Shown here one piece after another: positions 151 to 46,121 of a stretch of DNA of 64,000 bases. The translations under genes and the position numbers were made by a program. The notes under the pieces are model-generated. The model made no database searches and was not told the DNA's origin. It worked only from the letters and a program-made list of their open reading frames with translations. The first letter of the stretch is position 1; each line of letters opens with the position of its first letter. Source of the stretch: Alphaproteobacteria bacterium (GTDB taxonomy: Bacteria; Pseudomonadota; Alphaproteobacteria; UBA828; JAPUJA01); the NCBI GenBank assembly GCA_965198325.1, contig CBDAPE010000015.1, positions 335,158-399,157 on the forward strand, written 5' to 3'.

Positions 151-1175
151 GCGGTCAACTCCAGGGCGGCCTTTTCCGCCGCCGTGTAAAACGCGTCCGC
201 ATGGCAATTCTCGCGCGCCACGCCCAGTTCGTAAAGCTGGACGAGACAGCTTTCCACCATCGGCGGGGGACCGGCGAGGTAGGCGCGTGCGCCCTCGCCG
301 GCGATGCGGTCTTCGCCAAGACCGTCCGCCAGCAGCCCGGTCCGCCGCTCCGTGGGCCCGACGGGCTCGGACAGCACGACCCGGTAGTCGAGATTTGCAT
401 GGGCCGACGCCAGGTCCTTGAAGTGATCCTCGAGATAAACGTCGCGCTCGTCGCGCACCCCGTGGTAGAGCCGGATCGGCGCTTTGAGCCCCGCGGCAAG
501 CGCCTCCTCGACAATCGCCTTGATGGGCGCAAGGCCCGAGCCCCCTGCGAGCGCGACCACGGGACCCGTGTGACGGGCCCGCCAGTAGGCGAAGCCGAAC
601 GGGCCTTCGGCGCGCACCGGATCGCCGAGGCTGAGGGTGTTGCGCACAAAGCCGCTGACCGCGCCGTTCTCGAGCGCCCGAACGTGGAAGTCGAGCGTCG
701 CCTCGTCGGGCCGGCTCGCCATGGAATAGTCGCGCACGGGCAGGCCGTCGAAGGTCAGTTCCGCATATTGCCCCGCGGTGAAGTGAAACGGCCCGCCCGC
801 GACCACGTCGAGGGTCACGCGCGTGATGTCGTGGGTCAGAGGGGTGAGCGCGGCGACCGTGCAGTCGAGCCGGCGGCGGGGATGAGCGACCAGCTCGTCG
901 TCTTCGAGGAACGCGATCTCGCAGTCGCTCCAGGGGACCGCACGGCAGGCCAGGATCAGGCCGGCGGCGGCTTGCTGCGCCGAGAGCGCGTGCTCCGAAT
1001 AGGGCGCCATCCGGACATCGCCCGAATGCAGGCGTGACTTACAGGCGCCGCAGTTGCCCGACTTGCAGCCGTGCGGATAGGGCCGCCCGAGGCCGAGCGC
1101 GGTTTCGAGGATCGTCGCGCCCATCTCGACAATGAACGGCTCGTTCCACTGCCGGACGGTTACCGTGTAGCTCAT
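147..1175 (-). CDS. Oxidoreductase with an N-terminal plant-type 2Fe-2S ferredoxin fused to an FNR-like FAD/NAD(P)-binding domain. Probable oxygenase reductase component.
   Basis: 342 aa. The N-terminus has CKSGNCGACK...C (Cx4Cx2C...C, 2Fe-2S). It is followed by an RDYSMAS (RxYS FAD-binding) motif and a GGSGLAP NAD-binding motif. Confidence 0.85.
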   Translation of the reverse strand: MSYTVTVRQWNEPFIVEMGATILETALGLGRPYPHGCKSGNCGACKSRLHSGDVRMAPYSEHALSAQQAAAGLILACRAVPWSDCEIAFLEDDELVAHPRRRLDCTVAALTPLTHDITRVTLDVVAGGPFHFTAGQYAELTFDGLPVRDYSMASRPDEATLDFHVRALENGAVSGFVRNTLSLGDPVRAEGPFGFAYWRARHTGPVVALAGGSGLAPIKAIVEEALAAGLKAPIRLYHGVRDERDVYLEDHFKDLASAHANLDYRVVLSEPVGPTERRTGLLADGLGEDRIAGEGARAYLAGPPPMVESCLVQLYELGVARENCHADAFYTAAEKAALELTA

Positions 1176-1308
1176 GCGTGGTCCGTCGTCGTTTCCAGGC
1201 AGGCATCTTGGGACCCGGGCGACCGGTTGGCAACGCGCAGACGCAGGCTATGAATTTTTCACCGGCTGGGCGAAGATTTACCGGTTCAAGATCAAGGGGG
1301 ACCGAATC

Positions 1309-1908
1309 ATGACCGACGAACGCGATCTCATAATCCCGCCTAAATCGGGGCGCGCCATCGTGGTGAAACGGGGCGAGACTCTCCGGGTGACCGACCTGGA
1401 AGGTCACCAGGTGGCCGACTTCGTGTGCTTCAACGAACACGACCATTCGGAATTTCTTTCCGCCGGGAAAACCCGGATGAACCCCTTCAAGGTCCGGATC
1501 TCGACTGGTGACAGACTCTATTCGAACCTGAGCACGGTCCTGTTTACGATCGGCAAGGACACGGTCGGCGTGCACGACCTGCTGTTCCCGCCGTGCAACC
1601 GCTGGCTCTACGAGAATGCGCTCGGCCAGCCGGGCGGCACCGGATGCCTCGAGAACCTGCGCGACGCGCTGGCGCCTTACGGGATCGAAGAATGGCAGGT
1701 GCCGGACCCGTTCAACCTGTTCATGAACACCCGCGTGGATGACGAAGACAATCTGGTCATCGAACTACCGAAATCCGGTCCGGGCGATTACATCGAACTC
1801 ACCGCCGAGATGGATTGTCTGGTCGGCGTGACCTCCTGCGCGGAGGAAAAGGCGAGCGACTGCAACGGCCGGCACGTGACCCCGATCGGGCTTGCGATCG
1901 TCCGCTGA
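1309..1908 (+). CDS. DUF1989-like (urea-carboxylase-associated family) protein
   Basis: 199 aa beginning MTDERDLIIPPKSGRAIVVKRGETLRVTDLEGHQVADFVCF. GGGGA lies about 8 nt upstream of the ATG. The longer ORF from 1174 has an Arg-rich leader and is probably not translated. The family call is from memory of the DUF1989 profile. Confidence 0.6.
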   Translation: MTDERDLIIPPKSGRAIVVKRGETLRVTDLEGHQVADFVCFNEHDHSEFLSAGKTRMNPFKVRISTGDRLYSNLSTVLFTIGKDTVGVHDLLFPPCNRWLYENALGQPGGTGCLENLRDALAPYGIEEWQVPDPFNLFMNTRVDDEDNLVIELPKSGPGDYIELTAEMDCLVGVTSCAEEKASDCNGRHVTPIGLAIVR

Positions 1909-4408: not shown

Positions 4409-5476
4409 ATGACATCTGGCACATTTAAAATAGTCGCCGTGTCGGCCGCGCTGTTTGCTAGTACTGCGTTCAGTTACTTGGCCACTACGGCCACTACGGC
4501 ATTTGCAGGCGAGTTAAACCTACTCACGTGGGAAGGATACACTGACCAGAGCTTTATCGCCGCTTTCGAGGAGAGGACCGGATGTAAGATCACCGAGACC
4601 TTTATTGGGTCGCAGGAAGAGATCGCACCCAAGCTCTCGGGTGCCACGGGAGTCTACGACCTCGTCTCCCCCCAGATCGATTCGGCAAAAATCTTAGCTC
4701 AGATGGGTGTGGTTGAGCCTATTGACGTTCCGCGCCTCAAGCATTGGGGGGAATTCTACGGGTCGTTCATTGATCATCCCGGTCTCATCATCGACGGCGA
4801 GACGTGGGGTATGCCGTTTACCTGGGGTTCGGTCCCCCTGATGTATCGCACGGATAAGATCGACGATCCTCCGTCCTCGTTCTCGGTTCTCTGGGATCCG
4901 AGGTATGCCGGCAAGACCGCAGTGCAGGACGACAAGTCCAATATTTACATTGCTGCCCGTCTGCTCTTTGGGAGGGACTTTGACGCCTACAAGATGACCG
5001 ATGAGCAGCTTGAAACCGTGAAAGAAAAGTTAATCGAACAGAAAAAATACCTCCGCAAGTATTGGGCATCGGCGGGTGAACTTATAAATCTCTATGCGAA
5101 CGGTGAAGTCTGGATTTCTACCACTTGGGGCGGCTACCAAGTGGCTATACTCCAAGAACAGGGTATCCCAGTCGTTGAAGTCCTTCCCGAGGAGAGGGCC
5201 GAAGGATGGCAGGATGTCTGGATGATCGTAAAAGACACCGCCAATAGGGATTGTGCCTACGAGTGGCTCAACTTTGCGAGCGGATCCGAGGGCCAATGCG
5301 GAGTCGCAAGTGTCACGGGATATTGGGGAGCAAACCCGGTGGCGCTAGAGAGCTGCATGACGCCGGACATATTCCGTCCCTCCGAAGATTATACCGATAA
5401 CCTCTCGTTCCCAACTCAGCCGGAACCGCTTGAAGGCTATGTTAACACTTGGAATGCCGTAAAGACCGCCCCTTGA
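4409..5476 (+). CDS. Periplasmic substrate-binding protein, ABC family 1 (spermidine/putrescine PotD/PotF-like). It is an orphan: no permease or ATPase lies nearby.
   Basis: 355 aa with an N-terminal signal peptide (MTSGTFKIVAVSAALFASTAFSYLA...AFA). The codon usage is noticeably AT-richer than the flanks. An AT-rich promoter-like region with two TTGACA boxes lies at about 4310-4340. Confidence 0.7.
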   Translation: MTSGTFKIVAVSAALFASTAFSYLATTATTAFAGELNLLTWEGYTDQSFIAAFEERTGCKITETFIGSQEEIAPKLSGATGVYDLVSPQIDSAKILAQMGVVEPIDVPRLKHWGEFYGSFIDHPGLIIDGETWGMPFTWGSVPLMYRTDKIDDPPSSFSVLWDPRYAGKTAVQDDKSNIYIAARLLFGRDFDAYKMTDEQLETVKEKLIEQKKYLRKYWASAGELINLYANGEVWISTTWGGYQVAILQEQGIPVVEVLPEERAEGWQDVWMIVKDTANRDCAYEWLNFASGSEGQCGVASVTGYWGANPVALESCMTPDIFRPSEDYTDNLSFPTQPEPLEGYVNTWNAVKTAP

Positions 5477-5547: not shown

Positions 5548-5702
5548 ATTTCGTGCGAACTCCAAGCCGATCCTGGAAACGATCTCTTTGAGGCCGAAAT
5601 GGTTATCAAGAATAAGAGTGAATCCTGCATGCCTTGGCCAATTTTCTAATAGCCTTGAAGTCACTTCGAGAATGCACAACCAGAGACCCGTGAGAGGAAC
5701 AC

Positions 5703-8297
5703 GTGCCGTCGATTTATAAGATACAGCCCGAAGATCGGATTTACGCTGAAGAATTTCGTCGAAATCCGATTGGCCACCACAGCCCTGGGTTAAATCGCAT
5801 TCTCACCTTGTTTAGAGGTGAACCGGTCGAGAAGAAAGATGTTCTCGTATGCGTACAACCCCACCGAGAGTGGTGGCTGGGACAGTTGTCCGGGCACCGA
5901 GGAAGGCCAATCAGGATTATTCGAGATAAGTGTTTTAGAAATCTCTGGGACGCGGAGTGGGAGATTTTCAAAAGGCGGTGGAAAAAGCATACGGGCGAAG
6001 ACCTTGAAGGCCAGGATAAGCAGCGCGAAGCCCCCCACTCCTATCGGGACGACGGCATCAGGATTACAGGTTATAGCGACCGCATCGGTGTGAGGCCGGG
6101 CGAAACCATCCACTTCAAGGTCTCATGCGACCGCGTCAAGAGCTACCGCTCCGACATTGTCCGTCTCGTCTGCGGCGACACTGATCCTAATGGGCCGGGC
6201 TTCAAGGAGAAGCTCGTGAAGACTGGTGTGAGCGGGCGCTACAAAGGTCGAAAACAGGCGATTCGCGTGGGATCCCACACGATCGTGCCCACTGCATCCG
6301 CACTCGAAGCGCTGGAGAGCTTTTCCCTGCAAGCGATGATTTGGCCGACTACTCCCAGGAAAAGTATTCAAGGGATCATTTCAAAGTGGTCCGCAGGGTC
6401 AAAAAGTGGATTTGCACTAATCATCGACGAGAAGGGCGAGGCCGCCCTAATGGTCGGGGACGGAGCCGGCCGAGTGCACATCGTCAGCACGGGACGACGC
6501 CTGCTCGATCGGCAATGGTATTTCGTGGGGGCAAGTTTTGATGCCCGGGCGCAGCGAGTCCGTGTATTTCAGGAGCCGCTTGTGCAGTTTCCGGGACATG
6601 ATGACCCTGCTGTAAAAAGCCAAACGCTCGAGCTAGCTCGGGTCGGAGCAAATGACTGTCCGTTAATCATGGCCGGAATACAGCAGCGATCTTCGAAGGC
6701 TCGGATAATCGTGGGAAACCACTATAACGGCAAGATTGACAGCCCACGTCTTGCCAACCGAGCCCTTTCACCAGCGGAGGTGGAGACCCTTAAGCATGGC
6801 GTTCCCGCCGCTCTCGAAGATGCGGTCGTTGCCGCTTGGGACTTCTCGCGCGACATTGGCTCCGAGCGCATTGCAGACCTTTCGCCCAACCAGCTCCAGG
6901 GCACGATGGTCAACCTGCCCACGCGCGCGGTAACGGGCTGGAATTGGACGGGGCAGCATATGCGCTGGAGCGAGGCCCCCGAGCAATGGGGCGCGATTCA
7001 CTTTCATGACGACGATCTTTACGACGCGGGCTGGGAGACGGATTTTGAGTGGAAAGTGCCCGGGCGTATGAAGAGCGGTCTCTACGCTACGCGCCTTCGC
7101 TCCGGACGATCCGAGGAATACGTTCCTTTTGCCGTCGGGCCGAGGCCAGGGCACGAGTCGAAGGTAGCACTCCTTCTGCCAACCGCCAGTTACATGGCCT
7201 ACGCCAACGAGCACTCAGGAACGGACTCGGACACGATTGAACGGATGAACGGCGTTGTTTGCGTCCTGTACCCGCAAGACCTGTTTCTAAACAAGCATCG
7301 GGAATACGGTGCCTCGCTCTACGACACGCACACAGACGGGAGTGGTGTCGTCTACTCTTCGCGCCTGCGTCCGATCCTGAACATGCGGCCCAAATACGAA
7401 TCCAACATGGGCGGAGCGAAAGTCCACCAGTTCAACGCGGATACCCACATCATCGACTGGCTCGAGGCGAACGACATCGAATACGACGTCATTACGGACG
7501 AGGAGCTCGACCGACGTGGCATGGCGTTGCTGTCCCCTTACCGGGTTGTGCTCACCGGGACCCATCCGGAGTACTGGTCGCCTAAGATGCAGGACGGGAT
7601 GGTCGCCTACGAGCGCCGCGGGGGACGACTGATGTATCTGGGCGGCAACGGGTTCTACTGGAAGATCGCCTTTCACCCGGAATTGCCCGGCGTGATCGAA
7701 GTCCGCCGCAACGAGACCGGCATGCGCGCCTGGCCGTCGGCGCCCGGTGACTACTACCACGCCTTCGACGGCGAATACGGTGGCCTCTGGCTGAACCAGG
7801 GCGGCGGGAGAACACAACAGTCTATGGTCGGAACCGCCTTTTGCGCCCAGGGGTTCGATCTTTCCTCCTACTACCGGCGCAAGCCGGACAGTCTTGACCA
7901 GAAGGTGAAATTCATTTTCGAGGGGATCGAAGACGACGAGTTGATCGGCGATTTCGGGTTGCTTGGAGGGGGCGCGGCCGGCTGGGAGATCGACTGTATT
8001 TCCTATGATCAAGGGACGCCGTCAAACACATTCGTTTTGGCGAGTTCTGAGGACCATACGGACGTTTATCAGCTTACTGCCGAAGAGATGCTCGAAGGTT
8101 ACGCGGGCACCGGAGGACAAGAAAATCCTCGCGTTCGTTCAGATATGGTGTTTTTCGAGACTGCAGATGGCGGAGCCGTGTTCTCAGTCAGCTCGATTGC
8201 CTGGGCGGCGAGCTTGTCGCACAACAATTATAAGAACAATGTTTCGCGGATAACGAAAAACGTTTTGACTCGCTTCCTCGATCCAAGAGTCTTCTAA
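5703..8297 (+). CDS. Large (864 aa) protein resembling the N,N-dimethylformamidase large (beta) subunit family (GATase1-like C-terminal domain)
   Basis: GTG start with GAGAGGA 5 nt upstream. The C-terminal half has LLLPTASYMAYANE, RVVLTGTHPEYWSPKMQDGMVAYERRGGRLMYLGGNGFYWK and AFDGEYGGLWLNQGGG. I recall these as characteristic of DMFase large-subunit/GATase1-like proteins. No small-subunit gene is adjacent. The family call is from memory. Confidence 0.45.
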   Translation: MPSIYKIQPEDRIYAEEFRRNPIGHHSPGLNRILTLFRGEPVEKKDVLVCVQPHREWWLGQLSGHRGRPIRIIRDKCFRNLWDAEWEIFKRRWKKHTGEDLEGQDKQREAPHSYRDDGIRITGYSDRIGVRPGETIHFKVSCDRVKSYRSDIVRLVCGDTDPNGPGFKEKLVKTGVSGRYKGRKQAIRVGSHTIVPTASALEALESFSLQAMIWPTTPRKSIQGIISKWSAGSKSGFALIIDEKGEAALMVGDGAGRVHIVSTGRRLLDRQWYFVGASFDARAQRVRVFQEPLVQFPGHDDPAVKSQTLELARVGANDCPLIMAGIQQRSSKARIIVGNHYNGKIDSPRLANRALSPAEVETLKHGVPAALEDAVVAAWDFSRDIGSERIADLSPNQLQGTMVNLPTRAVTGWNWTGQHMRWSEAPEQWGAIHFHDDDLYDAGWETDFEWKVPGRMKSGLYATRLRSGRSEEYVPFAVGPRPGHESKVALLLPTASYMAYANEHSGTDSDTIERMNGVVCVLYPQDLFLNKHREYGASLYDTHTDGSGVVYSSRLRPILNMRPKYESNMGGAKVHQFNADTHIIDWLEANDIEYDVITDEELDRRGMALLSPYRVVLTGTHPEYWSPKMQDGMVAYERRGGRLMYLGGNGFYWKIAFHPELPGVIEVRRNETGMRAWPSAPGDYYHAFDGEYGGLWLNQGGGRTQQSMVGTAFCAQGFDLSSYYRRKPDSLDQKVKFIFEGIEDDELIGDFGLLGGGAAGWEIDCISYDQGTPSNTFVLASSEDHTDVYQLTAEEMLEGYAGTGGQENPRVRSDMVFFETADGGAVFSVSSIAWAASLSHNNYKNNVSRITKNVLTRFLDPRVF

Positions 8298-8308
8298 CTG
8301 TTTATTGG

Positions 8309-8406
8309 GAAGAACTCAGCTAAGATGATTGTTCCCATGATTGCAGCCACTATCGCCACCTGAGGTTATTTTGGCGGACGAGGTTGAGGTAAATTTAACG
8401 TGCGCC
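8309..8406. repeat. 98-bp repeat, copy B. It contains the leader and the GTG start (8400) of the intact Rieske oxygenase gene.
   Basis: See copy A. Confidence 0.8.
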
Positions 8407-9572
8407 TGGAAGATTTTATCGATCGCGAACGCTTGGCCGACCTTGACCGGCCGATAGGCGAAACGGCCGGTCTCCCGGGAAGCGCGTACAGCGAGGGATT
8501 TTACAAACTCGAACAAAGGGAATTTTTTCCCCGCACATGGTGTGCCATCGCCGTCGGATCGCAAGTTCCCAGACCGGGAGATGTGATACCCATCGACCTC
8601 GCGGGCTGGCCGCTCCTCCTTGTTCGCAATCAGTCGGGTCAAATCAAGGTTTTCCACAACATGTGTCAACACCGGGGCATGCGCGTCGTGACGAAGTCCG
8701 CATGTCGCCAGGAGCTTCGGTGCCCGTGGCATGCCTGGACCTACGATCTGGATGGCCGTCTCAAAACGCGGCGCGATTTCGCAGGTTGGAACGCGCCGGA
8801 TGCCGGAGACATGAATGCGGAGCTACCCGGACTTAAAGAAGTGCGGTCGGATCAGTGGCACGACTACGTAATGGTCAATATCGACGGCAAGGCGCCGCCG
8901 CTTCGAGATCATATCAAGCCTCTCGATGACTTCCTCCAGGACTACGATCTTGATGCTTTCGAGTACGCGAACACGCTGGAGCATTCTTACGAAGGCAACT
9001 GGAAGCTGGCGATGGAGGGTGGGCTCGAGGAATACCATCTACGTTCGGCGCATCCCCGCTTTGCCAAGGGCGTCATTTCGCAAAATCTTGAGTTCAGCCT
9101 CGATGCGGCCTGCCATTCGGGTTACCTGTTCTCTCGGAACTTTGGAGAAACCGAAAGGGCGGATCGAGTGGGCGAGCGCGGCATGCCGGCTCGTCCTGGT
9201 ACCCCACGCGACGTTGAGAACTATTACCTGATCAACCTATTTCCTGTGGGCCTGATGCTCCTTGAGGACGATCACGCAATCTTCATCTTGTTTACCCCCG
9301 ATGGTTGGAACCGCACGCGCGTCGTCAACTACCACTATTATTTTGGTGCCGCGGCTGTTGATCCGGCTTATGCCGAGGTCCGCAAGGAGTTTGAAGACGT
9401 TTGGACAGAGGTGATGTACCAGGACGCGGATTTCGTGAAATACGTCCATGAGAATGCGCAGCTGCGTGATGCGGTCGGCATCAATTCGCACTTCGCGCCT
9501 TATTGGGAAAGGCCGGTCCAGCATTTTCAACGACTCGTCATAGATACGATGAAAAATAGCTCGGACGGATGA
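8400..9572 (+). CDS. Rieske [2Fe-2S] non-haem iron oxygenase alpha subunit (GbcA/Stc2/CntA-like N-demethylating monooxygenase family)
   Basis: 390 aa. The Rieske motif is CQHRG...x17...CPWHAW (CxH...CxxH). A downstream catalytic domain is present. GAGG lies upstream of the GTG. Confidence 0.85.
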   Translation: MRLEDFIDRERLADLDRPIGETAGLPGSAYSEGFYKLEQREFFPRTWCAIAVGSQVPRPGDVIPIDLAGWPLLLVRNQSGQIKVFHNMCQHRGMRVVTKSACRQELRCPWHAWTYDLDGRLKTRRDFAGWNAPDAGDMNAELPGLKEVRSDQWHDYVMVNIDGKAPPLRDHIKPLDDFLQDYDLDAFEYANTLEHSYEGNWKLAMEGGLEEYHLRSAHPRFAKGVISQNLEFSLDAACHSGYLFSRNFGETERADRVGERGMPARPGTPRDVENYYLINLFPVGLMLLEDDHAIFILFTPDGWNRTRVVNYHYYFGAAAVDPAYAEVRKEFEDVWTEVMYQDADFVKYVHENAQLRDAVGINSHFAPYWERPVQHFQRLVIDTMKNSSDG

Positions 9573-10253: not shown

Positions 10254-11432
10254 GCTGTCCAGATATCTTGTGTAAATGAGTGCCGTGGGTCCACCTACGA
10301 TGAGGACTATCAGACCTGAACTTCGACGAACTTCTGGCCGATTACGAGAAGCCGGATGACCTGCTGGGCGAAGACGGGCTTCGGTGCTCGAGCGGGCGCT
10401 TGGCGATGAGCGATCACCGGCTACGAGAAGGGTGACCCGGCGGTCGCGGCACGTAACAGCGGCTACTCGGACAAGACGGTGCTGAGCGAGGATGGCGAGA
10501 TCGATATCGCCGTGCCGCGCGACCGCACCGGCACGTTCGACCCGCTGATCGTGCCCAAGGGCGAACGCCGTCTCGAGGGCTTCGACGATCGCATCGTGTC
10601 GCTGTATGCCCGCGGCATGACGGTGCGCGAGATACGTGGCCATCTGCAGGAGCTTTACGGGGTCGCGGTTTCGCCGGACCTGATCAGCCGGGTCACCGAC
10701 GCGGTACTCGAGGAGGTCCGCGAATGGCAGAACCGACCGCTCGATGCGGTCTATCCGGTGGTGTTCTTTGACGCGCTGCGGGTCAAGATCCGCGACGAAG
10801 GCCTGGTGCGCAACAAAGCAGTCTACGTTGCACTGGCCCTCACCGCTGAAGGCGAGAAGGAGGTTCTCGGGCTGTGGATCGAGCAGACCGAAGGCGCCAA
10901 GTTCTGGCTCAAGGTGATGAACGACCTCAAGACCCGCGGCGTCGCTGACATCCTGATCGCCGTGGTCGACGGCCTCAAGGGCTTCCCCGAGGCGATAACA
11001 ACGGTGTTCCCCGAGACCACGGTGCAGACCTGCATCGTGCATCTGATCCGCAGTTCGCTGGCGTTCGTGTCGTGGAAGGACCGAAAGAGGATCATGCCCG
11101 ATATCAAGGCGATCTACCGCGCCGAAACCGCCGAGACCGCGGCGGCCAAGCTCGACGAGTTCGAGGCCAAATGGGGCGAGCGCTATCCGGCGATCGCGCC
11201 CAGCTGGCGCCGCGCCTCGCCGATGTTCGCGCGCCGGGATCCGCGATCTACACCACCAATGGAGCCTGCACCGGCGCAAGATCAAGACACGCGGTAGCAA
11301 CGACCGCGGTCAAGCGGTTCCTGGCGATCCGCAATGCCTTGGAAACGGCCTATTGAATGGACCGCCGCAATGGGGCGCGATCTGTTCGAGGATCCTTTCC
11401 GGCCTCAGCGCGCTCGAAACAATGTCGCCCCG
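10254..11432 (+). pseudogene. IS256-family transposase, degenerate (multiple frameshifts), inserted in istA
   Basis: Frame C reads FDELLADYEKPDDLLGEDGL, then there is a frame break. The central part is TGTFDPLIVPKGERR...DDRIVSLYARGMTVREIRGHLQELYGV...VYVALALTAEGEKEVLGLWIEQTEGAKFWLKVMNDLKTRGV...VVDGLKGFPEAITTVFPETTVQTCIVHLIR. The tail IYTTN...MPWKRPIEWTAAMGRDLFEDPFRP is in other frames. Confidence 0.8.
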
Positions 11433-11636
11433 CCACTTACACAGACAATCGGACACACCCATTCCCCCGGCCCCGCCCAGGCGGACTTCGGCGAGGCGAT
11501 GGCGGTGATCGGCTCCGAGCGGCTTACCGGCGCTCTCCTCGACCGCCGCACCCACCACGTCAACATCCTCGAGATGAATGGCGAGAGCTACAGGCTCAAC
11601 CAGAGCCGCAGGCGTCAAACCCCGACGGCGAACTGA
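11433..11636 (+). pseudogene. IS21 remnant: an istA fragment fused in frame to the istB C-terminus (internal deletion)
   Basis: PLTQTIGHTHSPGPAQADFGEAMAVIG (IstA segment that normally follows REMFV) runs directly into SERLTGALLDRRTHHVNILEMNGESYRLNQSRRRQ (IstB C-terminus). Confidence 0.65.
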
Positions 11637-11829
11637 ACCGACCACCCAACCCACGCTTGACCCCATGGGCCCACAGGTCCCTCCCGCGCGCGCCGCCGCG
11701 TCGGCCTGTTGAGGGCACGCCGCGTCGCACGCGGGGCCCGCCCATGGACTACGGGGACAAGCCCGCAGCCGCCAAGCGGTCCCTTCTTACACCGCCACGG
11801 TCGTCCCTTTTTGCTCCGCCATTGACACC

Positions 11830-13791
11830 CTAAAGCACTGCGGCGACCTTGAGCGCGTCGAGGGTCGCCTCTTCGACGGTCCGGGGCGTGGCGCAATCGC
11901 CGATCGCGATCACCTCGCCGTCATAATCGGATAACTCTTCGAGGAGCCCGGCATAGCGCTCGTGACCGAGCGCCAGAACGATGGTTTCGATGTCTTCGAC
12001 GACAATTGCCTCGCCGGTCATGATGTGCTGCAGATAGACCGAGTCGTCGTCGACCCCGAACAGCCGCGCATACGGGATCACCTCGACGCCGAGGCGATGC
12101 ATGGTTCCCGCCCCCATGTCTCGGATATAGGGCTGAAGCGATTGCCCGGCGGCGTAGCCGGCCACGGCGAGGCGCACCCGGCAGCCGTCGCGGGCGAGCT
12201 TCTCGGCCAAGCCGAGCCCGATCCAGTCGCAGCGCCAGTCGGCGACCAGCACCGAGGCCCCGACGTTGACCTCGTTCTTCAGCACCTGCCAGGCATCGAC
12301 CACATGCTCGCCCTCGAGACCATCGAGCGCGGGCCGGCGTGGGCCGGCACCGGTCGCGACGATCACCGCGTCGGGCGCTTCGCGGGCGATCAACTCGGGC
12401 GTGGCTGGCGTGTTCTTGACGACCGCGGCCCCGGCCAACTCCATCTCGCGGCTGAAATTGGTCACGATGCCGCCGAACTCCGCGCGGCCGGGGAGCGCCT
12501 GTGCAAGCAGGACCTGACCGCCAAGCTGGCCGCTCGCTTCGTAAAGCGTGACGGCGTGACCCCGCTCGGCGGCAACGATCGCGGCCTTCATGCCCGCGGG
12601 GCCACCACCGGCGACCAACACCTTGCGCACGGGGTCGGCTGGTTTGAGCGAGCCGTATTCGAGTTCGCGGCCGGTCTCGGGGTACTGGATACAGGAGATC
12701 GAATAACCGGTCATCATATGGCCTATGCAGGCCTGGTTGCAGGCGATGCAGGCACGAATATCGTCGACGCGCCCCGCTCGGGCCTTGTTGACCATCTCGG
12801 GATCGGAAATCTGGGCGCGGGTCATGCCGCACATGTCGGCCTGACCCGAGGCCAGAATGGTCTCGGCGATGTGGGGCTGGTTGATCCGCCCGGCGACGAA
12901 GACCGGCCGGGAAACCCGTTCGCGCACGGCGGCCGCGTAGGGCGCGACATAGCCCGTCTCCATGGCCATCGGCGGAACGATATGGGTCGCCGCGCCGAGA
13001 TTGACTGACGAGCCGGCGATGACATTGAAATAGTCGATCCCACCATCGCCGTCGAGCGCGACGCAGGCAGCCGCGGCTTCGTCGAGGCTCAGCATCTCCG
13101 CGTCGGTGCCGTCGCCGGTGATGCGCAGGCCGACGATCAATCCATCGTCGGTCTTGGACCGGACGTCAGTCACGACCTCGCGCAGAAACCGCAGGCGGTT
13201 ATCAACCGAGCCCCCATATTCGTCTTCGCGCAAGTTCACCCGCGGGCTCAGGAACTGGGCCGGCAGATAACCATGGCTGCCGACGATCTCGACACCGTCG
13301 AGACCCGCCTCGCGCATGCGCGCCGCGGCGTGGCCATAACCCGCCACAATTTCGCCGATCAGGTCGCGCGACATGGGCTCGGGTACGATGTGGAAGCGCT
13401 CGTTCGGCACCGCGGAGGGGGCATAGGCATGAGCCTGGGAGCCATCGGTCGAGCTGAAGATTTCGCGCCCCGGATGGAAGATCTGACCGAATATCCTGCA
13501 GCCGTGGGAATGAACCGTTTCGGCCAGCTCGGCGTAGCCCGGGATGCAGCTGTCGTCGTAGGCGATGATGGAATTGAGGTTGAATACGCCGGTCGGATGC
13601 ACCGCGCCGATCTCGACGATAATCAGACCGGCCCCACCCTTCGCGCGCGCCTCGTGATACGCCCTGAGCGCATCGTTGGGAGCGGTGCCTTCGACGAGCA
13701 GGGTTTCATGCCCCGTCGAAAAAATGCGGTTCCGGATCTCGAGTCCCCGGATGGTAAGCGGACTGAACAGGGTCGGAAACATTTGGCTCAT
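11830..13791 (-). CDS. Old-yellow-enzyme-family FMN/Fe-S flavoprotein fused to an FAD/NAD(P)-binding domain (dimethylglycine/N-methylproline demethylase StcD/DgcA-like, TMADH/2,4-dienoyl-CoA reductase family)
   Basis: 653 aa from MSQMFPTLFSPLTIRGLEIRNRIF (GAGGAAGAG RBS). An OYE TIM-barrel N-domain is followed by a 4Fe-4S motif CIACNQACIGH...C. The C-terminal Rossmann motif is KVLVAGGGPAGMKAAIVAAERGHAVTLYE. Confidence 0.85.
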   Translation of the reverse strand: MSQMFPTLFSPLTIRGLEIRNRIFSTGHETLLVEGTAPNDALRAYHEARAKGGAGLIIVEIGAVHPTGVFNLNSIIAYDDSCIPGYAELAETVHSHGCRIFGQIFHPGREIFSSTDGSQAHAYAPSAVPNERFHIVPEPMSRDLIGEIVAGYGHAAARMREAGLDGVEIVGSHGYLPAQFLSPRVNLREDEYGGSVDNRLRFLREVVTDVRSKTDDGLIVGLRITGDGTDAEMLSLDEAAAACVALDGDGGIDYFNVIAGSSVNLGAATHIVPPMAMETGYVAPYAAAVRERVSRPVFVAGRINQPHIAETILASGQADMCGMTRAQISDPEMVNKARAGRVDDIRACIACNQACIGHMMTGYSISCIQYPETGRELEYGSLKPADPVRKVLVAGGGPAGMKAAIVAAERGHAVTLYEASGQLGGQVLLAQALPGRAEFGGIVTNFSREMELAGAAVVKNTPATPELIAREAPDAVIVATGAGPRRPALDGLEGEHVVDAWQVLKNEVNVGASVLVADWRCDWIGLGLAEKLARDGCRVRLAVAGYAAGQSLQPYIRDMGAGTMHRLGVEVIPYARLFGVDDDSVYLQHIMTGEAIVVEDIETIVLALGHERYAGLLEELSDYDGEVIAIGDCATPRTVEEATLDALKVAAVL

Positions 13792-13975
13792 GGCGTCTCT
13801 TCCTCGGCTGCGCCCTAACCAACCCCGAATTGCCGTGCCAATCAAGGGCACAGCGCATCGGGCGGGCTCACGGCCTTGTGAGGGCAGTTGATTTGTCTGG
13901 CGTGGTCAAGCGGCCTATCTCTGTCGGCGTGTGACGGCGATCAACGCGGCGCCCGCGATTTAGATGCAAAAGACC

Positions 13976-14260
13976 ATGGCAAGAGCAATTTGGAACGGTA
14001 CCGTTATCGCAGAAAGCGAATCCGCAAAAATCGTGGACGGGACCCTTTACTTTCCGCCCGAGGCTCTCCATCTCGAGTACTTCCGGGCCAGTGGAACCGA
14101 GACGGTCTGCCCCTAGAAGGGCACGGCGTCCTATTTCACCCTTGAGGTGGAGGGCGTTTGCAACGAGGATGCGGCCTGGGCCTATATTGATCCCAATCCC
14201 CAGGCCGATGCGATCCGCGGCCATGTCGCGTTTCAGAAAGACGTTAACGTTGTTTCTTAA
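13976..14260 (+). pseudogene. DUF427 family protein with an in-frame TAG at a conserved Trp position
   Basis: MARAIWNGTVIAESESAKIVDGTLYFPPEALHLEYFRASGTETVCP-TAG-KGTASYFTLEVEGVCNEDAAWAYIDPNPQADAIRGHVAFQKDVNVVS. The DUF427 consensus has CPWKG here. The TAG at 14114-14116 replaces TGG. Confidence 0.6.
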
Positions 14261-14324
14261 CCGGGCATTGGCAATTCTCGCCCTAAACTGGGCACCATTG
14301 GCAGGTAGCCCGAGGACGACCACG

Positions 14325-14759
14325 ATGGTCCGCAGATTCCTTCTCACCACCGCCCTGGCGGTATTCATTCCTGGCCTCGCGCCGGCGTTGACCAGCGCCC
14401 CGATCGCCGTCGAGATCGTCGGCGTGCGCAGCGCGTCCAGCGTCATCGAACTCGCCGTCTACGACAGCGCCGAGAGCTTCCTCGAAGACGGCCAAAGCGT
14501 CGCCACGGCGACCTTCGACGCGAGCGACGGCCGGGTGGCCGGCGAGGTCCTCGGACTTCCCGCGGGCCGCTACGCCATCGCGGTCTTCCACGACGAGAAC
14601 GGCAACGACGAGTTCGATACGAACTTCATCGGCCTGCCCACCGAGGGCTACGGCTTCTCGAACGGCGCGACCGTATTCCTGGGCCCGCCCGCGTTCGACG
14701 ACGCTGCCTTCGAGACCGGCGCCGAAGGCGCCCGACTGACCGTAAACCTGTCCTACTAG
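14325..14759 (+). CDS. DUF2141-like secreted protein
   Basis: The signal peptide is MVRRFLLTTALAVFIPGLAPALTSAP. The mature part is IAVEIVGVRSASSVIELAVYDS...AGRYAIAVFHDENGNDEFDTNFIGLPTEGYGFSN, which is typical of DUF2141. Confidence 0.6.
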   Translation: MVRRFLLTTALAVFIPGLAPALTSAPIAVEIVGVRSASSVIELAVYDSAESFLEDGQSVATATFDASDGRVAGEVLGLPAGRYAIAVFHDENGNDEFDTNFIGLPTEGYGFSNGATVFLGPPAFDDAAFETGAEGARLTVNLSY

Positions 14760-14796: not shown

Positions 14797-15870
14797 TTAG
14801 GCTGCGGCGAAGTCGGCCAGGCGGATCGGCGCACGGCGCGCGCCCCAAGTGCCGGCGGGGCCGTCGAAGCGCCCCGCAAGCGGGGTCGCGCAGTGGGTAC
14901 AGCGGCCGTCGTCGGTGAGGTTCCAGGCGCCGAGCCGGTACCAATCGCGCTCGATCAGGAGACCGCCGCAACCGTGGCAATAGGTGGAGCCGCCGTCCGA
15001 ATCATGGACGTTGCCCGTATAGGCGTAGCGCACGCCGTTGCGCATGGCGATACCCCTGGCCCGGGTCAGCGTCGCAGGCGGGGTTGCCGGCTGGTCGCGC
15101 ATCTTCCAGTCCGGGTGAAAGGCGGTGAAGTGCATCGGCACGTCGGGTCCGAGCTCGTCGACGACCCAGCGGGTCATAGCATCGAGTTCCTCGTCGGAAT
15201 CGTTCTCGCCCGGGATCAACAGGGTCGTGAGCTCGAACCAGACATCGGTCTCATGCTTGAGCCAGACCAGGGTATCGAGCACCGGCGCGAGCTCGGCACC
15301 ACAGATCTTGCGGTAGAAAACGTCGGTGAAGGCCTTCAGGTCTATGTTCGCGGCGTCCATGTCGCGGTAGAACTCGACGCGAGGCTCCTTGCAGATATAG
15401 CCCGCAGTGACCGCAACCGTGCCGATCTCCGCCTCGCGGGCGGCGCGCGCGATGTCGAGCGCATATTCGAAGAAGATGACCGGGTCGTTGTAGGTGAACG
15501 CGATCGAGCGGCAGCCGGTCGCCTTCGCGGCACGCACGATCACTTGCGGCGACGCGGCGTCGGCAAGGGTGTCGATCTCGCGCGACTTGCTGATGTCCCA
15601 GTTCTGGCAGAATTTGCAGGTCAGGTTGCAACCCGCCGTGCCGAACGACAGGACGGGGGATCCCGGCAGGTAGTGGTTGAGCGGCTTCTTCTCGATTGGG
15701 TCGATGCAGTATCCGGACGAGCGGCCGTAGCTCGTCATCACCAGACCGTCGCCGGCCCGTGCCCGGATGAAGCACAGGCCCCGCTGACCTTCGTGAAGCT
15801 TGCAGTAGCGCGGGCAAATATCGCACTGGATACGGCCGTCTTCGAGCGCATGCCAATAGCGCCCCGGCAC
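14797..15870 (-). CDS. amrS: AmmeMemoRadiSam system radical SAM enzyme (AmrS)
   Basis: Contains GRYWHALEDGRIQCDICPRYCKLHEGQRGLC and a CNLTCKFCQN radical-SAM cluster motif (CxxxCxxC). A C-terminal CHGCGG...CTHC motif is present. The start chosen is the GTG at 15870, giving VPGRYW. The annotated ORF extends to 16125 but would overlap the divergent neighbour by 55 bp. Confidence 0.8.
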   Translation of the reverse strand: MPGRYWHALEDGRIQCDICPRYCKLHEGQRGLCFIRARAGDGLVMTSYGRSSGYCIDPIEKKPLNHYLPGSPVLSFGTAGCNLTCKFCQNWDISKSREIDTLADAASPQVIVRAAKATGCRSIAFTYNDPVIFFEYALDIARAAREAEIGTVAVTAGYICKEPRVEFYRDMDAANIDLKAFTDVFYRKICGAELAPVLDTLVWLKHETDVWFELTTLLIPGENDSDEELDAMTRWVVDELGPDVPMHFTAFHPDWKMRDQPATPPATLTRARGIAMRNGVRYAYTGNVHDSDGGSTYCHGCGGLLIERDWYRLGAWNLTDDGRCTHCATPLAGRFDGPAGTWGARRAPIRLADFAAA

Positions 15871-16070
15871 GATCGACGGATCGCGCGCAGCCTCTTCGGC
15901 TGTAACCGCGTTATCGATGACACCCTCCTCGCCGGACTTGATGCTGCGCCCGACCGTACTAAGGTAAGCAAGGAGCTTGCCGGTTTCAATCGGCAGGCGG
16001 CGGCCTCGCTTTACGGCTCCGCCGGTGCGCGCTAGGCTTCCGGCCCGGGCGAGCGCCCAAGGAGGAGACG

Positions 16071-17510
16071 ATGACGAGTGTGCGACCCGCGGCGGTGGCG
16101 GGTACATTCTACCCCGGCGATGCACGCAATCTTACGGACGCGATCCAAGGCTACCTCGCCGGCGTTGCAGCCCAAGGACCCGCGCCCAAGGCGCTGATCG
16201 CGCCCCATGCGGGCTATATCTATTCGGGTCCGATCGCCGCGTCCGTGTACGGCCGGTTACGGGAGGCGGCGGGCCGGATCCGCCGGGTCGTGCTTCTCGG
16301 CCCCTCTCACTACGTTGCCCTCAGCGGTCTTGCGGTCCCGTCCGTCGATTTTTTCGAGACGCCGCTGGGAAAGATTGCCATCGATACCAAGGCGCGGGCG
16401 CGGGTTGCCGGGCTCGCACAGGTCACCATCGACGACGGGCCGCACGCCCGGGAACACAGCCTGGAGGTCCAGTTGCCGTTCCTGCAGGACGTGCTCGACG
16501 ATTTTGTCCTTCTGCCGCTGTCGGTCGGCCAGGCGACGGCGGCCGAGGTTGCCGAAGTGATCGAGGCACTGTGGGGCGGCGAAGAGACCCTGATCGTCAT
16601 CAGCTCCGATCTTTCCCATTATCACGACTACGCCACAGCCCAACGGCTTGACGCGGAAACCTCCAAGGCCATCGAGCAGCTCAGCCTTCACGATATCGGG
16701 CAGGCTTCGGCCTGCGGCCGGGTGCCGATCTACGGCCTGTTGACCGTTGCACAGCGCCGAGGCCTGTCGGCCACAACGATCGACCTGCGCAACTCAGGTG
16801 ATACGGCGGGCCCGCGGGATCGGGTCGTAGGCTATGGCGCCTACGTGTTTGGGCCTGAGGGCAGCGGCGCGAAAACCAGCGATGGCACCGGCTTGGCGGG
16901 CGATGACGACACGGAAGACCCGGCGCTCGCCCGTCTACTCGCGAGTCACGGCGATACGCTGCTCCACGTCGCCCGGGTCTCGCTCGAATCGGGCGTAAAT
17001 CGTGGCCGGGCGGCCGATGTCGAAATCGCGAATGCACCTGACGCACTCAAGATCCACGGCGCCAGCTTCGTCACTCTCGAAGAGGCGGGGCGCCTTCGGG
17101 GTTGCATCGGTTCGCCCCAGGCCTGGCGGCCGCTGGCCATCGACGTCGCCGAGAACGCCTACCGGGCAGGCTTCGAGGATCCCCGGTTCGAGGCAATCGA
17201 GGCACCGGACCTCGACCGCGTCGATGTCTCGGTCTCGGTGTTGGGTGAGCCCCGACGCTTCGCAGTGGAGTCCGAAGACGATCTGATCGCCAAGCTACGG
17301 CCGGGTGTCGACGGTCTGATCCTGCGCGACCAGGGAAAAAGCGGCCTGTTTCTGCCCGCGGTCTGGGAGAAATTACCCGAGGCGCCGGACTTCGTCGGCC
17401 GCCTCAAACTCAAGGCAGGTCTCACGGCCGATCACTGGTCGGATCAGATGGAGATCTGGCGTTTCGTCAGCGCCTCGGTTTCACAGCCGGCAACGACTGC
17501 CACGCGGTAA
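16071..17510 (+). CDS. Fusion protein: an N-terminal Memo-like (AmrB) domain and a C-terminal AMMECR1 (AmrA) domain
   Basis: N-terminus: AGTFYPGDARNLTDAIQGYL...ALIAPHAGYIYSGPIAASVY...LLGPSHY (Memo/MEMO1 family). C-terminus: HGASFVTLEEAGRLRGCIGSPQAWRPL (AMMECR1 LRGCIG motif). A strong AAGGAGG RBS is present. Confidence 0.85.
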   Translation: MTSVRPAAVAGTFYPGDARNLTDAIQGYLAGVAAQGPAPKALIAPHAGYIYSGPIAASVYGRLREAAGRIRRVVLLGPSHYVALSGLAVPSVDFFETPLGKIAIDTKARARVAGLAQVTIDDGPHAREHSLEVQLPFLQDVLDDFVLLPLSVGQATAAEVAEVIEALWGGEETLIVISSDLSHYHDYATAQRLDAETSKAIEQLSLHDIGQASACGRVPIYGLLTVAQRRGLSATTIDLRNSGDTAGPRDRVVGYGAYVFGPEGSGAKTSDGTGLAGDDDTEDPALARLLASHGDTLLHVARVSLESGVNRGRAADVEIANAPDALKIHGASFVTLEEAGRLRGCIGSPQAWRPLAIDVAENAYRAGFEDPRFEAIEAPDLDRVDVSVSVLGEPRRFAVESEDDLIAKLRPGVDGLILRDQGKSGLFLPAVWEKLPEAPDFVGRLKLKAGLTADHWSDQMEIWRFVSASVSQPATTATR

Positions 17511-31161: not shown

Positions 31162-31238
31162 TGGTCGGAGCGGCGGGATTCGAACCCACGACCCCTTGTC
31201 CCCCAGACAAGTGCGCTACCAGACTGCGCCACGCTCCG
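31162..31238 (-). tRNA. tRNA-Pro (anticodon GGG)
   Basis: The reverse complement folds as a canonical cloverleaf: CGGAGCG-TG-GCGC-AGTCTGGTA-GCGC-A-CTTGT-CTGGGGG-ACAAG-GGGTC-GTGGG-TTCGAAT-CCCGC-CGCTCCG-A-CCA. Confidence 0.9.
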
Positions 31239-44723: not shown

Positions 44724-46025
44724 TTAAGCTCCGCCGAGAGCACGGTAGATCGGAAAGCGCGCACAGAGTGCCCGAGCCTGCGCCGCTGCCGCCGCCTCTG
44801 CAGCGGAATTGTCATCGGGATGGGCTGCAAGTCCGTCGAGCACATCGCCGATGAGATGCCCGACGGTGCGGAATTCCGCCGTGCCGAAGCCGCGACTGGT
44901 CGCCGCCGGCGTACCCAACCGGATGCCCGACGTCACGGTCGGCTTCTCGGGATCGAACGGTATCGCGTTCTTGTTGCAGGTCATGCCGGCGTTCTCGAGG
45001 CTGATCTCGGCGGCTTTGCCGGTCAGCGTCTTTGACCGCAAATCGACCAGCATGAGATGGGTGTCGGTCCCGCCCGAGACGATATCGACACCGCGCTCGA
45101 CGAGGCTGTCCGCCAGAACTTTGGCGTTCTCCGCCACTTGAGCAGCATAGGCTTTGAATTCGGGCGTCAGCGCTTCGCCGAAAGCGACCGCCTTCGCCGC
45201 GATCGCGTGCATCAGCGGGCCGCCCTGAAGCCCCGGAAAGATCGCTGAGTTGATCTTCTTCGCGATCTCCTCGTCGTCCGACAGAATGATGCCACCACGC
45301 GGGCCGCGCAGGGTCTTGTGCGTGGTCGACGTGACCACATGGGCGTGGGGAAACGGGCTCGGGTGCACGCCGGCGGCGACCAGGCCGGCGAAGTGCGCCA
45401 TGTCGACCATGAAGTAGGCACCGGCGGAATCGGCGATCCCGCGGAACCGGGCAAAGTCGATGATCCGGGGATAGGCCGAGCCGCCCGCGATGATCAGCTT
45501 GGGCCGATGTTCCGTGGCCAGCGCCTCGACCTCGTCGAAATCGATCTGGTCGTCCTGACTGCGCACGCCGTACCCGATCGCGTCGAACCACTTGCCGGAA
45601 AGATTGGGCTTCGCGCCGTGGGTCAGGTGACCACCTGCAGCCAGGCTCATGCCCAGGATCGTATCGCCGGGCTTGATCAGGGCGAGAAAGACCCCCTGGT
45701 TGGCCTGGGAGCCGGAGCTCGGCTGGACGTTGGCGAAGCCGCAGCCGAACAGCTCTTTGGCCCGGTCGATGGCCAACTGCTCTGCGATATCGACAAATTC
45801 GCAACCGCCGTAATAGCGCCGGCCAGGATAGCCCTCGGCATATTTATTGGTCAGGACCGAGCCTTGGGCCCGGAGAACCGCCGCACTCACGATATTCTCC
45901 GAGGCGATCAGCTCGATCGTGTTCTGCTGGCGCTCGAGTTCGAAATCAAGGGCGCGTTGGAGTTCGGGGTCGGTCTCCGCGAGTTCGGCGGAAAAGATCG
46001 GCAATTCGGAAGCACTCATTTCCAT
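44724..46025 (-). CDS. glyA: Serine hydroxymethyltransferase
   Basis: [15 protein letters not shown]...[12 protein letters not shown]. The start is MEMSASELP, with an alternative at 46019. Confidence 0.9.
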
Positions 46026-46121
46026 AACGTTTCGTTCTCGTGGCTGCACTACTGTTTCAACCTGTCGTTACCCGGGCGATCCGATGCCGTCCAGCCGCGG
46101 TCGGCGGGTCATCGCCGCCGA

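Follow-up and report, generated by a model that had tools for sequence, protein, structure and literature searches.

What the two divergent genes at 14,797 to 17,510 encode, and whether anything sets them apart from the many related loci already annotated, is the question that this region raises. The window analyzed is a stretch of 64,000 nucleotides from an Alphaproteobacteria contig, in which mechanically called open reading frames run from 14797 to 16125 on the minus strand (442 aa) and from 16071 to 17510 on the plus strand (479 aa). A first-pass annotation had read them as an AmmeMemoRadiSam system, with a radical-SAM gene transcribed divergently from a gene for fused B and A proteins, and had proposed three family models as a check. 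The coordinates and strands of the frames agree with that layout, and all three models, once run, scored far above cutoff: TIGR04337 on amrS gave 643 bits against a curated cutoff of 220, covering model positions 2-349 of 349, TIGR04336 on the Memo part of amrBA gave 263.9 bits against 26, and TIGR04335 on its AMMECR1 part gave 181.2 bits against 99. Pfam matches at the locus are to Radical_SAM (PF04055, 64 bits), Memo (176.8 against 27), and AMMECR1 (136.7 against 25). With E-values of 1e-194, 1e-79, and 1e-54 for the HMM matches, chance matches are excluded. As in the three-gene system that the models describe (TIGR04335, AmrA; TIGR04336, AmrB; TIGR04337, AmrS), the components adjoin and their signature residues are intact; nothing essential differs, except that B and A form one polypeptide here and amrS is divergent rather than part of an operon, and both states are common. 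Judged from its sequence, the locus is a genuine, standard proteobacterial AmmeMemoRadiSam module, an ordinary copy of a widespread system, and it adds nothing over thousands of other annotated loci save detail of start site and promoters. Taken together with the mechanism, the overlapping promoters, and the ATC 15918 start proposed below, a standard divergent amrS/fused amrBA module is very probably the best explanation of the region (Table 1).

Table 1. Positions in the window of the genes, domains, motifs, and predicted signals discussed in the text.
Feature	Position	Strand	Details
DUF2141 gene	14325..14759 (ORF 14091..14759)	+	PF09912 108 bits; likely start ATG 14325, 144 aa; convergent with amrS
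amrS (AmmeMemoRadiSam radical-SAM enzyme)	14797..15918	-	preferred model 373 aa, ATC 15918 to stop TAA 14797-14799; TIGR04337 643 bits, cutoff 220
AmrS C-terminal motif CX2C-X22-CX2C	14890..14979	-	C314, C317, C340, C343; invariant among homologues
AmrS radical-SAM cluster motif CNLTCKFC (CX3CX2C)	15607..15630	-	C97, C101, C104; invariant in 31 homologues
AmrS N-terminal four-Cys motif CX2CX3CX9C	15772..15825	-	C32, C35, C39, C49 (373-aa numbering); invariant in 31 homologues
GTG, public-annotation start of amrS (alternative)	15868..15870	-	357 aa (P0121, NCBI/ENA); no upstream SD
ATC, proposed non-canonical amrS initiation codon (codon -16)	15916..15918	-	homologous codon in relatives ATG/ATA/ATC
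GAGGAGG, Shine-Dalgarno-like	15924..15930	-	5 nt ahead of ATC 15918; relatives show AAGG-type purine runs in this place
Predicted amrBA promoter	15938..15965	+	TTGATG (15938..15943), 16 nt, TAAGGT (15960..15965); predicted TSS ~15972
Predicted amrS promoter	15961..15989	-	TTGAAA (15989..15984), 17 nt, TACCTT (15966..15961); predicted TSS ~15954
amrBA (fused AmmeMemoRadiSam protein B, Memo, and protein A, AMMECR1)	16071..17510	+	479 aa; AAGGAGGA before ATG 16071
Memo/AmrB domain	16083..16850	+	residues 5-260; TIGR04336
Gly/Asp-rich inter-domain linker GPEGSGAKTSDGTGLAGDDDTEDPALARLLASHGD	16851..16955	+	residues 261-295, 35 aa
AMMECR1/AmrA domain	16956..17471	+	residues 296-467; TIGR04335; R343-G344-C345-x-G347

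The fusion of B and A had been put forward as notable. By its domain content it is one of the standard architectures of the family and already known: a "ring-opening dioxygenase" fused to AMMECR1, with the same radical-SAM neighbor as here, has been published (Balaji and Aravind, 2007, NAR 35:5658; PMC2034487), and JGI product names already read "protein B/protein A" for fused homologues. Both domains are carried by every one of the best 120 database matches (120/120), and about 130 of the best 150 representatives of 50%-identity clusters are full-length fusions. Across 80 genome loci, the two are fused in 25 and encoded by adjacent genes, B then A, in 47, and the stop codons that separate them are real in many loci checked; the fused form is common and recurrent, set apart from the adjacent one only by loss of a stop codon. 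Methylococcus capsulatus is a cultured carrier of the adjacent form. The short distance in those 47 of 80 loci, a few bases, means that one error could fuse the genes, as it would if the fusion here were an assembly or sequencing artefact in which a stop codon had been lost, or the frame shifted, between neighbors. The probability of such an artefact is negligible: NCBI/ENA and a Logan assembly of an independent read set (ERR13605531) both contain the same 479-aa protein with 100% identity, fused homologues number in the thousands and occur in cultured strains too, their linkers vary from about 10 to 78 aa, and the linker here is 35 aa of in-frame sequence rather than a few-base junction. The fusion had also been recommended as a convenient construct; for testing the function of the system, this locus offers no advantage over thousands of others. 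The divergent layout is likewise shared, with amrS divergent in 50/80 genome loci (54/84 with four close-relative loci included) at a median extrapolated gap of about 150 bp; the gap here is 152-200 bp.

Two other families, DUF2141 and DUF427, had been named as conserved nearby. A DUF2141 gene does adjoin amrS here, but as a partner of the system it was rejected, being present in 0/80 genome loci and either apart from amrS or missing in close relatives, a case of local synteny only; the ORFs scanned from 9.9 to 28.7 kb include no DUF427. When the ORFs of the 80 loci were clustered all against all in search of a fourth conserved gene, any other family reached at most 21/80, a figure that reflects lineage synteny. 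No other gene is consistently linked to amrS or amrBA. Elsewhere in the window, the paired ORFs of 441 aa each (44.7 and 47.3 kb) are unrelated genes and form no repeat.

The product of amrBA was described from the start as a 479-aa protein in which a Gly/Asp-rich linker joins Memo to an AMMECR1 domain with LRGCIG, and both the HMM spans and the sequence agree, LRGCIG lying at residues 341-347. Ten residues are invariant in 43 fused proteins: H46, H80, H129, D180, H183, and C215 in the Memo part, and R343, G344, C345, and G347 in the AMMECR1 part. Homology to structures of human MEMO1 (PDB 7KQ8, 3BCZ) and of archaeal AMMECR1 (1WSC, 1ZQ7, 1VAJ) is significant, with profile E-values of 6e-40 and 2e-31, respectively; those structures are of separate proteins, whereas here the two form one chain, which keeps the catalytic-candidate Cys of the AMMECR1 structures. 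A PDB search that used the C-terminal Memo fragment alone returned no match, while a profile search gave the correspondence of C215 to C244, and in the profile alignment to 7KQ8 the residues H46, H80, and C215 align to H49, H81, and C244, the iron ligands of MEMO1 (PMC11081632). AmrB departs from the 2-His-1-carboxylate triad of class III extradiol (LigB-type) dioxygenases, its third ligand position being C215, a Cys as in MEMO1; LigB and DesB have Glu at this position, and tests of MEMO1 detected no dioxygenase activity (PMC11081632). The fusion had been taken to argue for a physical B-A complex. It does imply that B and A act together, but an AF2 model (pTM 0.63) places no confident packing or interface between the domains, and residues 267-280 fall below a pLDDT of 50, the linker being flexible and disordered.

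In AmrS, the CxxxCxxC motif and C-terminal Cys cluster recognized earlier were both found and are invariant in homologues. A further N-terminal CX2CX3CX9C group had escaped the first reading. Outside TIGR04337, the next-best NCBIfam matches are all glycyl-radical activases, namely PflA, YjjW, and PFLE_PFLC, at scores below cutoff (PflA, TIGR02493, 48.8 against 231.75; PFLE_PFLC, TIGR02494, 40.8 against 174.35). PflA (PDB 3C8F) is the closest characterized relative and shares the radical-SAM core and CX3CX2C; unlike PflA, AmrS has additional invariant four-Cys motifs at its N and C termini. No glycyl-radical enzyme gene was found near amrS among the ORFs scanned, and the JGI product name "pyruvate formate lyase activating enzyme" for AmrS homologues is a mis-transfer. 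While Balaji and Aravind called the radical-SAM enzyme MiaB-related (PMC2034487), AmrS here is nearest to the PFL-activase type by HMM and PDB searches. The PDB search returned neither a solved AmrS structure nor a solved fused B-A structure.

A search of the accessible literature for biochemical characterization of any of the three proteins found none, and the chemistry and substrate can only be proposed. A [4Fe-4S] cluster held by CX3CX2C in AmrS would cleave SAM to a 5′-deoxyadenosyl radical, which would abstract a hydrogen atom from a substrate, be it a small molecule, an RNA base, or a partner protein, for AmrA and AmrB to process further. AmrA may hold or transfer the intermediate on Cys345, the invariant Cys of the RGCIG cleft, and AmrB, with its LigB-type fold, may run a metal-dependent step at a mononuclear Fe(H46, H80, C215). 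Radical-SAM enzymes are oxygen-labile and a dioxygenase-like fold would use O2; the pairing of a radical-SAM enzyme with Memo is awkward if Memo really is an oxygenase. Instead of co-processing a small substrate, AmrBA might be the radical enzyme itself, with AmrS acting as its activase, like the PFL-activating enzyme, to install a radical (glycyl or thiyl) in the RGCIG loop of AMMECR1. We regard this as unlikely: to our knowledge, AMMECR1 has neither a glycyl-radical-enzyme fold nor an RVxG motif, and every activase model fell far under its cutoff. The activase matches themselves (PflA at 48.8 bits), 3C8F as the nearest solved structure, and the invariant Gly344-Cys345 within a conserved loop speak in its favor, as does the proposal of organic-radical transfer onto a conserved cysteine, the role put forward for the Cys of LRGCIG (PMC2034487). 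An activase role is also hard to square with B-A functioning without AmrS in eukaryotes (PMC2034487) and in L084 (such numbers denote loci of relatives). Association with the radical-SAM enzyme was reported for prokaryotes, eukaryotes having no AmrS partner (PMC2034487); the conservation "from archaea to humans" first claimed for the whole system holds for Memo and AMMECR1. In L084 and L085, amrS has been deleted and amrBA kept. Because the B-A pair persists both there and in eukaryotes lacking amrS, it would be the functional core of the system, a view that the relative with amrBA and without amrS supports. Both Memo and AMMECR1 are linked to human disease; their function is worth pursuing, and bacterial systems with a radical-SAM partner are a sensible way in.

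The one new detail of the locus is the amrS start, which is probably ATC 15918, 16 codons upstream of the annotated one. Canonical in-frame starts are confined to GTG 16125, ATG 16107, and GTG 15870. The long AmrS frame had been described as annotated and as overlapping its partner by 55 bp; the overlap is exactly 55 bp, but the frame is only the mechanical ORF, the public record giving 357 aa from GTG 15870. That the 442-aa frame is the real amrS, overlapping amrBA head to head by 55 bp (from GTG 16125) or 37 bp (from ATG 16107), is very improbable. The frame is open and its overall GC3 is 0.82, a value dominated by the core, while the 85-aa extension has no homologue in at least 80 loci and a composition that is not coding-like (GC1/2/3 of 0.69/0.62/0.68, against 0.62/0.50/0.85 in the core); in close relatives an in-frame stop interrupts it 30 codons before the GTG equivalent, and both starts lie upstream of the predicted amrS promoter.

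GTG 15870 had been proposed as the true start, and it is already the publicly annotated one; it is probably not correct, since relatives point to codon -16. Across a close-clade sample of only four to five independent sequences, this codon is ATG in L087, ATA in L082, L086, and L084, and ATC in L088, L094, and L096, with an SD before it in each clade member compared. The peptide is conserved with relatives from codon -16 onward, and a 1-nt indel among relatives upstream of it shows that the stretch beyond is non-coding. An ATT/ATC at codon -24 was considered as a start and rejected, because in L088 the reading frame from -24 to -16 is broken by a 1-nt indel. ATC and ATA are rare initiation codons in bacteria. 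If amrS were instead translated from GTG 15870 (357 aa), the conserved upstream peptide would be the relic of a recently lost ATG start. This is a serious option, if the more doubtful one: of the three canonical starts GTG 15870 is the only one near the family HMM match, which starts just past the GTG, at residue 89 of the long ORF; gene callers chose it (P0121), L087 has GTG at the equivalent codon, and the N-terminal tail of AmrS is not conserved in the wider family. Its equivalent is GTC in L082 and GTT in L088, however, and so cannot be the clade's start, and in L082 canonical starts are absent from the in-frame stop at -30 up to +12, as they are anywhere upstream of the invariant Cys motif. 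The GTG also lacks an SD, all homologues with DPSIVP carry 16-29 residues before its position, and relatives differ by synonymous third-position changes within codons -16 to -1. Typical AmrS homologues are 364-381 aa long, and of the 120 listed no non-truncated one is shorter than 357 aa. The 442-aa start is almost certainly not real and GTG 15870 less likely than ATC 15918, with translation most likely beginning at this ATC behind GAGGAGG. Cloning of AmrS or its close relatives should begin at codon -16 (IDNAVT...), as a protein begun at the annotated GTG or a truncated Met loses a conserved N-terminal segment and, in relatives, the invariant four-Cys motif too. This is one of two practical points that the locus offers, the other being the natural amrS-less relative as support for a B-A core.

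The divergent region had been put at about 200 bp, and 15871..16070 is indeed 200 bp. Within it are two predicted overlapping divergent promoters of sigma-70-like type, with conserved hexamers at fixed spacing, whose -10 boxes overlap on opposite strands. For amrS, the window and L082, L087, and L088 each give one match, its position shared although the spacers have diverged, and the promoter is lost in L084 along with amrS; the amrBA promoter is kept there and reads TTGAAT-N16-TA(A/G)(C/T)GT in relatives, L084 included. Both have weak hexamers, their -10 boxes matching at 3/6 positions, and a generic promoter and terminator scan gave no match, the amrS promoter being missed because its -10 box matches only 3/6. 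A search of the intergenic region for riboswitches and other known RNAs matched nothing in Rfam beyond one meaningless lncRNA hit at E = 0.45. A 5′-leader hairpin (GGGCGGG...CCCGCCC in relatives, GUCGGGC...GUCCGGC here) was predicted in 4/4 sequences and rejected: its folding z-scores (-0.1 to -1.8) fall short of significance, and its conservation is equally explained by the amrBA -35 box on the opposite strand. We infer that mutually exclusive sigma-70-type promoters could drive amrS leftward (TSS ~15954) and amrBA rightward (TSS ~15972). The joint reading for this small alphaproteobacterial clade, in which amrS is translated from an AUC or AUA codon and its promoter shares part of the -10 box with that of divergent amrBA, stands at about even chances. 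If true, the radical-SAM partner would be kept low and competitively coupled to expression of the B-A core, and every current AmrS annotation of the clade (357 aa, 323 aa, 394 aa) would be wrong at the N-terminus. In some relatives, codon -16 adjoins the stop of a 13-codon upstream ORF.

The radical-SAM gene (amrS) and the gene fusing Memo (AmrB) to AMMECR1 (AmrA), amrBA, lie where the first-pass annotation placed them, and its 55-bp overlap between the long minus-strand ORF and the plus-strand gene is borne out by their coordinates (see table). The three TIGRFAM models it proposed as a check all scored above cutoff: the radical-SAM protein gave 643 bits against TIGR04337 (cutoff 220; model positions 2-349 of 349), and residues 5-260 and 296-467 of the 479-aa protein gave 264 bits against TIGR04336 (AmrB; cutoff 26) and 181 bits against TIGR04335 (AmrA; cutoff 99). 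Pfam agreed, with Radical_SAM, Memo and AMMECR1 matched, while generic activase models reached only 20-49 bits on the radical-SAM protein, far under their cutoffs (PflA, 48.8 vs. 231.75 bits). Because the system models were passed and the generic ones were not, the locus, judged by profile searches, truly encodes the AmmeMemoRadiSam system, as opposed to an unrelated Memo homologue with some generic radical-SAM enzyme for a neighbour. The JGI label for the majority of AmrS homologues is 'pyruvate formate lyase activating enzyme'; with PflA models scoring far under cutoff, this naming is a systematic annotation over-transfer.

Features of the amrS-amrBA locus, its relatives and the rest of the window
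Feature	Position	Strand	Details
amrS, long ORF	14797..16125	minus	442 aa
amrBA	16071..17510	plus	479 aa; start ATG 16071, AAGGAGGA ahead of ATG
Predicted amrS promoter	15989..15984; 15966..15961	minus	TTGAAA, 17 nt, TACCTT; conserved block
Predicted amrBA promoter	15938..15943; 15960..15965	plus	TTGATG, 16 nt, TAAGGT; conserved block
amrS N-terminal region, window			IDNAVTAEEAARDPSIVPGRYWH
amrS N-terminal region, L082			IDNPVTLDAARTDPSIVPARYWH
amrS N-terminal region, L087			MDQPVTLDAARTDPSIVPGRYWH
amrS N-terminal region, L088			IDHSVTLDAVRTDPSIVPARYWH
AmrS N-terminal Cys group			CX2CX3CX9C
AmrS radical-SAM Cys group			CX3CX2C
AmrS C-terminal Cys group			CX2C-X22-CX2C
13-codon upstream ORF, L082	~5893-5935		
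13-codon upstream ORF, L084	~5913-5952		
13-codon upstream ORF, L088	~2962-3003		
Outer-membrane beta-barrel ORF	17820-18239	minus	139 aa
DUF1989	1174..1908		
Lower-GC insert	1909-11829		~10 kb
Solute-binding protein	4409..5476		in insert
N,N-dimethylformamidase-beta-like protein	5703..8297		864 aa; in insert
Rieske oxygenase alpha subunit	8400..9572		in insert
Mutator-family transposase fragment	10479..11297		IS debris; in insert
IstB fragment	11334..11636		IS debris; in insert
OYE-type flavin oxidoreductase	11830..13851		
tRNA-Pro	31162..31238		
Serine hydroxymethyltransferase	44724..46049	minus	
tRNA-Cys call	44792-44888	plus	97 nt

The locus is real and correctly identified, yet already known and ordinary. 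The fusion had been regarded as notable; a B-A fusion is a common form and not unusual. Both Pfam domains occur in all of the 120 best matches out of at least 8000, and JGI product names for the fused homologues already give both components. When cluster representatives at 50% identity were searched exhaustively, 17,892 proteins matched; of the 150 best, ~130 exceed 430 aa and are matched across both domains. Among 80 loci from species-representative genomes, B and A were fused in 25, adjacent (B then A, with a real stop codon between) in 47, and Memo lacked an adjacent A in eight. Fused and adjacent states are both present in the Methylococcaceae, which points, going by taxon labels, to repeated fusion or fission. 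Divergent amrS is the usual layout (50/80 loci; 54/84 with four close-relative loci added), the extrapolated gap typically being 90-300 bp.

The claim that DUF2141 and DUF427 are conserved nearby fared less well. A DUF2141 gene (PF09912, 108 bits) is present, convergent with amrS, but it occurs in 0/80 genome loci, and DUF427 was not found in the window between 9.9 and 28.7 kb. In close relatives DUF2141 adjoins the OYE-type oxidoreductase gene; one relative has a histidine kinase-response regulator pair between it and amrS, another has transposase debris there, and a third lacks DUF2141 altogether. When all ORFs from the 80 loci were clustered, every other family was confined to 21 loci or fewer. 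Downstream of amrBA, the beta-barrel ORF is equally short in the related locus L084, its syntenic counterparts in other relatives having 215-242 aa; with a Pfam score of 24.4 (gathering threshold 28.7), it may be a truncated gene or a shorter paralogue.

The only canonical in-frame starts of the long amrS ORF are GTG 16125, ATG 16107 and GTG 15870. The first-pass annotation was right to doubt the long ORF: its 85-codon extension has no homologue and a GC1/2/3 of 0.69/0.62/0.68, vs. 0.62/0.50/0.85 in the amrS core, and in relatives a stop codon closes the frame 30 codons ahead of the GTG 15870 equivalent. The extension is thereby ruled out as coding, and it is very improbable that the long ORF is the real amrS. 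GTG 15870, proposed as the true start and already used in public records (P0121, 357 aa), is a weaker candidate than it appears, and we hold it to be possible but doubtful. It would yield the shortest non-truncated AmrS among the 120 homologues listed (typically 364-381 aa), and two loci of close relatives have other codons in its place, L082 GTC and L088 GTT. All homologues with the DPSIVP motif have 16-29 residues ahead of this position. Among close relatives, conservation of the peptide sets in at codon -16 (16 codons upstream; ATC 15918..15916 in the window) and does not reach further back; downstream of this codon there are synonymous third-position changes, and a 1-nt indel lies upstream. 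A purine-rich SD precedes every codon -16 (in the window, GAGGAGG with a 5-nt spacer). Given this conservation, the SD, and loss of the GTG equivalent in L082 and L088, relatives favor ATC 15918, which we consider the probable start, if by no means a secure one (373 aa). Codon -16 is ATG in L087, ATA in L082, L086 and L084, and ATC in L088, L094 and L096; bacteria can initiate at ATC and ATA but rarely do so. In L082 no canonical start codon precedes the invariant N-terminal Cys motif at any point, which explains why its gene is called as a truncated 323-aa protein. A probable mis-annotation of the amrS start, with possible non-AUG initiation, is a new, modest finding. The amrS leaders of relatives also contain a 13-codon upstream ORF, MG(R/W)(E/K)FKPA(R/Q)GR(T/A)P, whose stop (TAG/TAA) overlaps the ATA at codon -16, an arrangement in which translational coupling to amrS is possible. 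In L088-type loci a 1-nt insertion joins it in frame to amrS, resulting in a 394-aa gene call; it is absent from window positions 15919-15960, where ACG replaces the relatives' ATG.

Intergenic DNA has diverged between the window and its relatives except in three blocks. The predicted amrS promoter recurs as TTGAAA-N17-TACGTT in L082, L087 and L088, its spacing to codon -16 unchanged, and the amrBA-strand pattern is TTGAAT-N16-TAACGT in relatives. Each is the sole match in ~170 nt per strand, and the -10 boxes, one on either strand, overlap each other. L084, from which amrS is deleted, provides a natural control on this assignment: the amrS-strand hexamers have decayed and the amrBA-strand ones are kept as TTGAAT-N16-TAGTGT. 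Transcription would start at ~15954 and ~15972. With only 3 of 6 positions matching in the -10 boxes, a generic promoter scan of the intergenic region gave no hits, and Rfam gave no family match there. These predicted overlapping divergent promoters are likewise new and modest.

The fusion had been taken to argue for a physical complex, which holds in part. Fusion implies joint action of B and A, but an AF2 model of AmrBA built on a 43-sequence alignment combined a mean pLDDT of 90.3 with a pTM of only 0.63 and a linker disordered at residues 267-280, so it offers no confident prediction of the relative placement of the Memo and AMMECR1 domains. In L084/L085 (70%-identical AmrBA), amrS and DUF2141 are deleted and amrBA is intact; positions 5463-6000 retain only the intergenic region and the first ~18 amrS codons (INNPVTLDDARTDPSIVP). 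The fetched flank also lacked amrS in 6/25 fused genome loci, two more having too little upstream sequence to judge. Because of these losses and absences, B-A looks like the core and AmrS like an accessory, which fits the literature, where the radical-SAM association is prokaryotic and AMMECR1 itself archaeo-eukaryotic (PMC2034487).

Across 43 fused proteins (49-70% identity), H46, H80, H125, E128, H129, D180, H183 and C215 of the Memo part and R343, G344, C345 and G347 of the AMMECR1 part are invariant. H46, H80 and C215 align on H49, H81 and C244 of human MEMO1, the iron-coordinating residues in structure 7KQ8 (PMC11081632). AmrS has three invariant cysteine groups. No solved structure was found for AmrS or for a fused B-A protein; the closest to AmrS is PFL-activating enzyme (E = 1e-6). 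That AmrS works like a PFL activase and places a radical on AmrBA is an unlikely, minority alternative. MEMO1 binds iron in an extradiol-dioxygenase-like site, with no dioxygenase activity detected (PMC11081632), and a literature search returned no functional study of a bacterial AmmeMemoRadiSam system; for these reasons the best-supported working model is the comparative-genomics one (Balaji and Aravind, 2007; PMC2034487). AmrS would generate a 5'-deoxyadenosyl radical, and AmrA, via Cys345, and AmrB, via its iron site, would belong to the same pathway and handle a common substrate.

Elsewhere in the window, lower-GC DNA (52-60% vs. ~65%) separates DUF1989 from the OYE-type oxidoreductase, genes that are directly adjacent in L084 and L088; from its gene content, this insert looks like a transposon-borne catabolic island. 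The ARAGORN tRNA-Cys call falls within the gene for serine hydroxymethyltransferase and, since Rfam gave it no support at the gathering threshold, is probably a false positive; tRNA-Pro is backed by both ARAGORN and Rfam.
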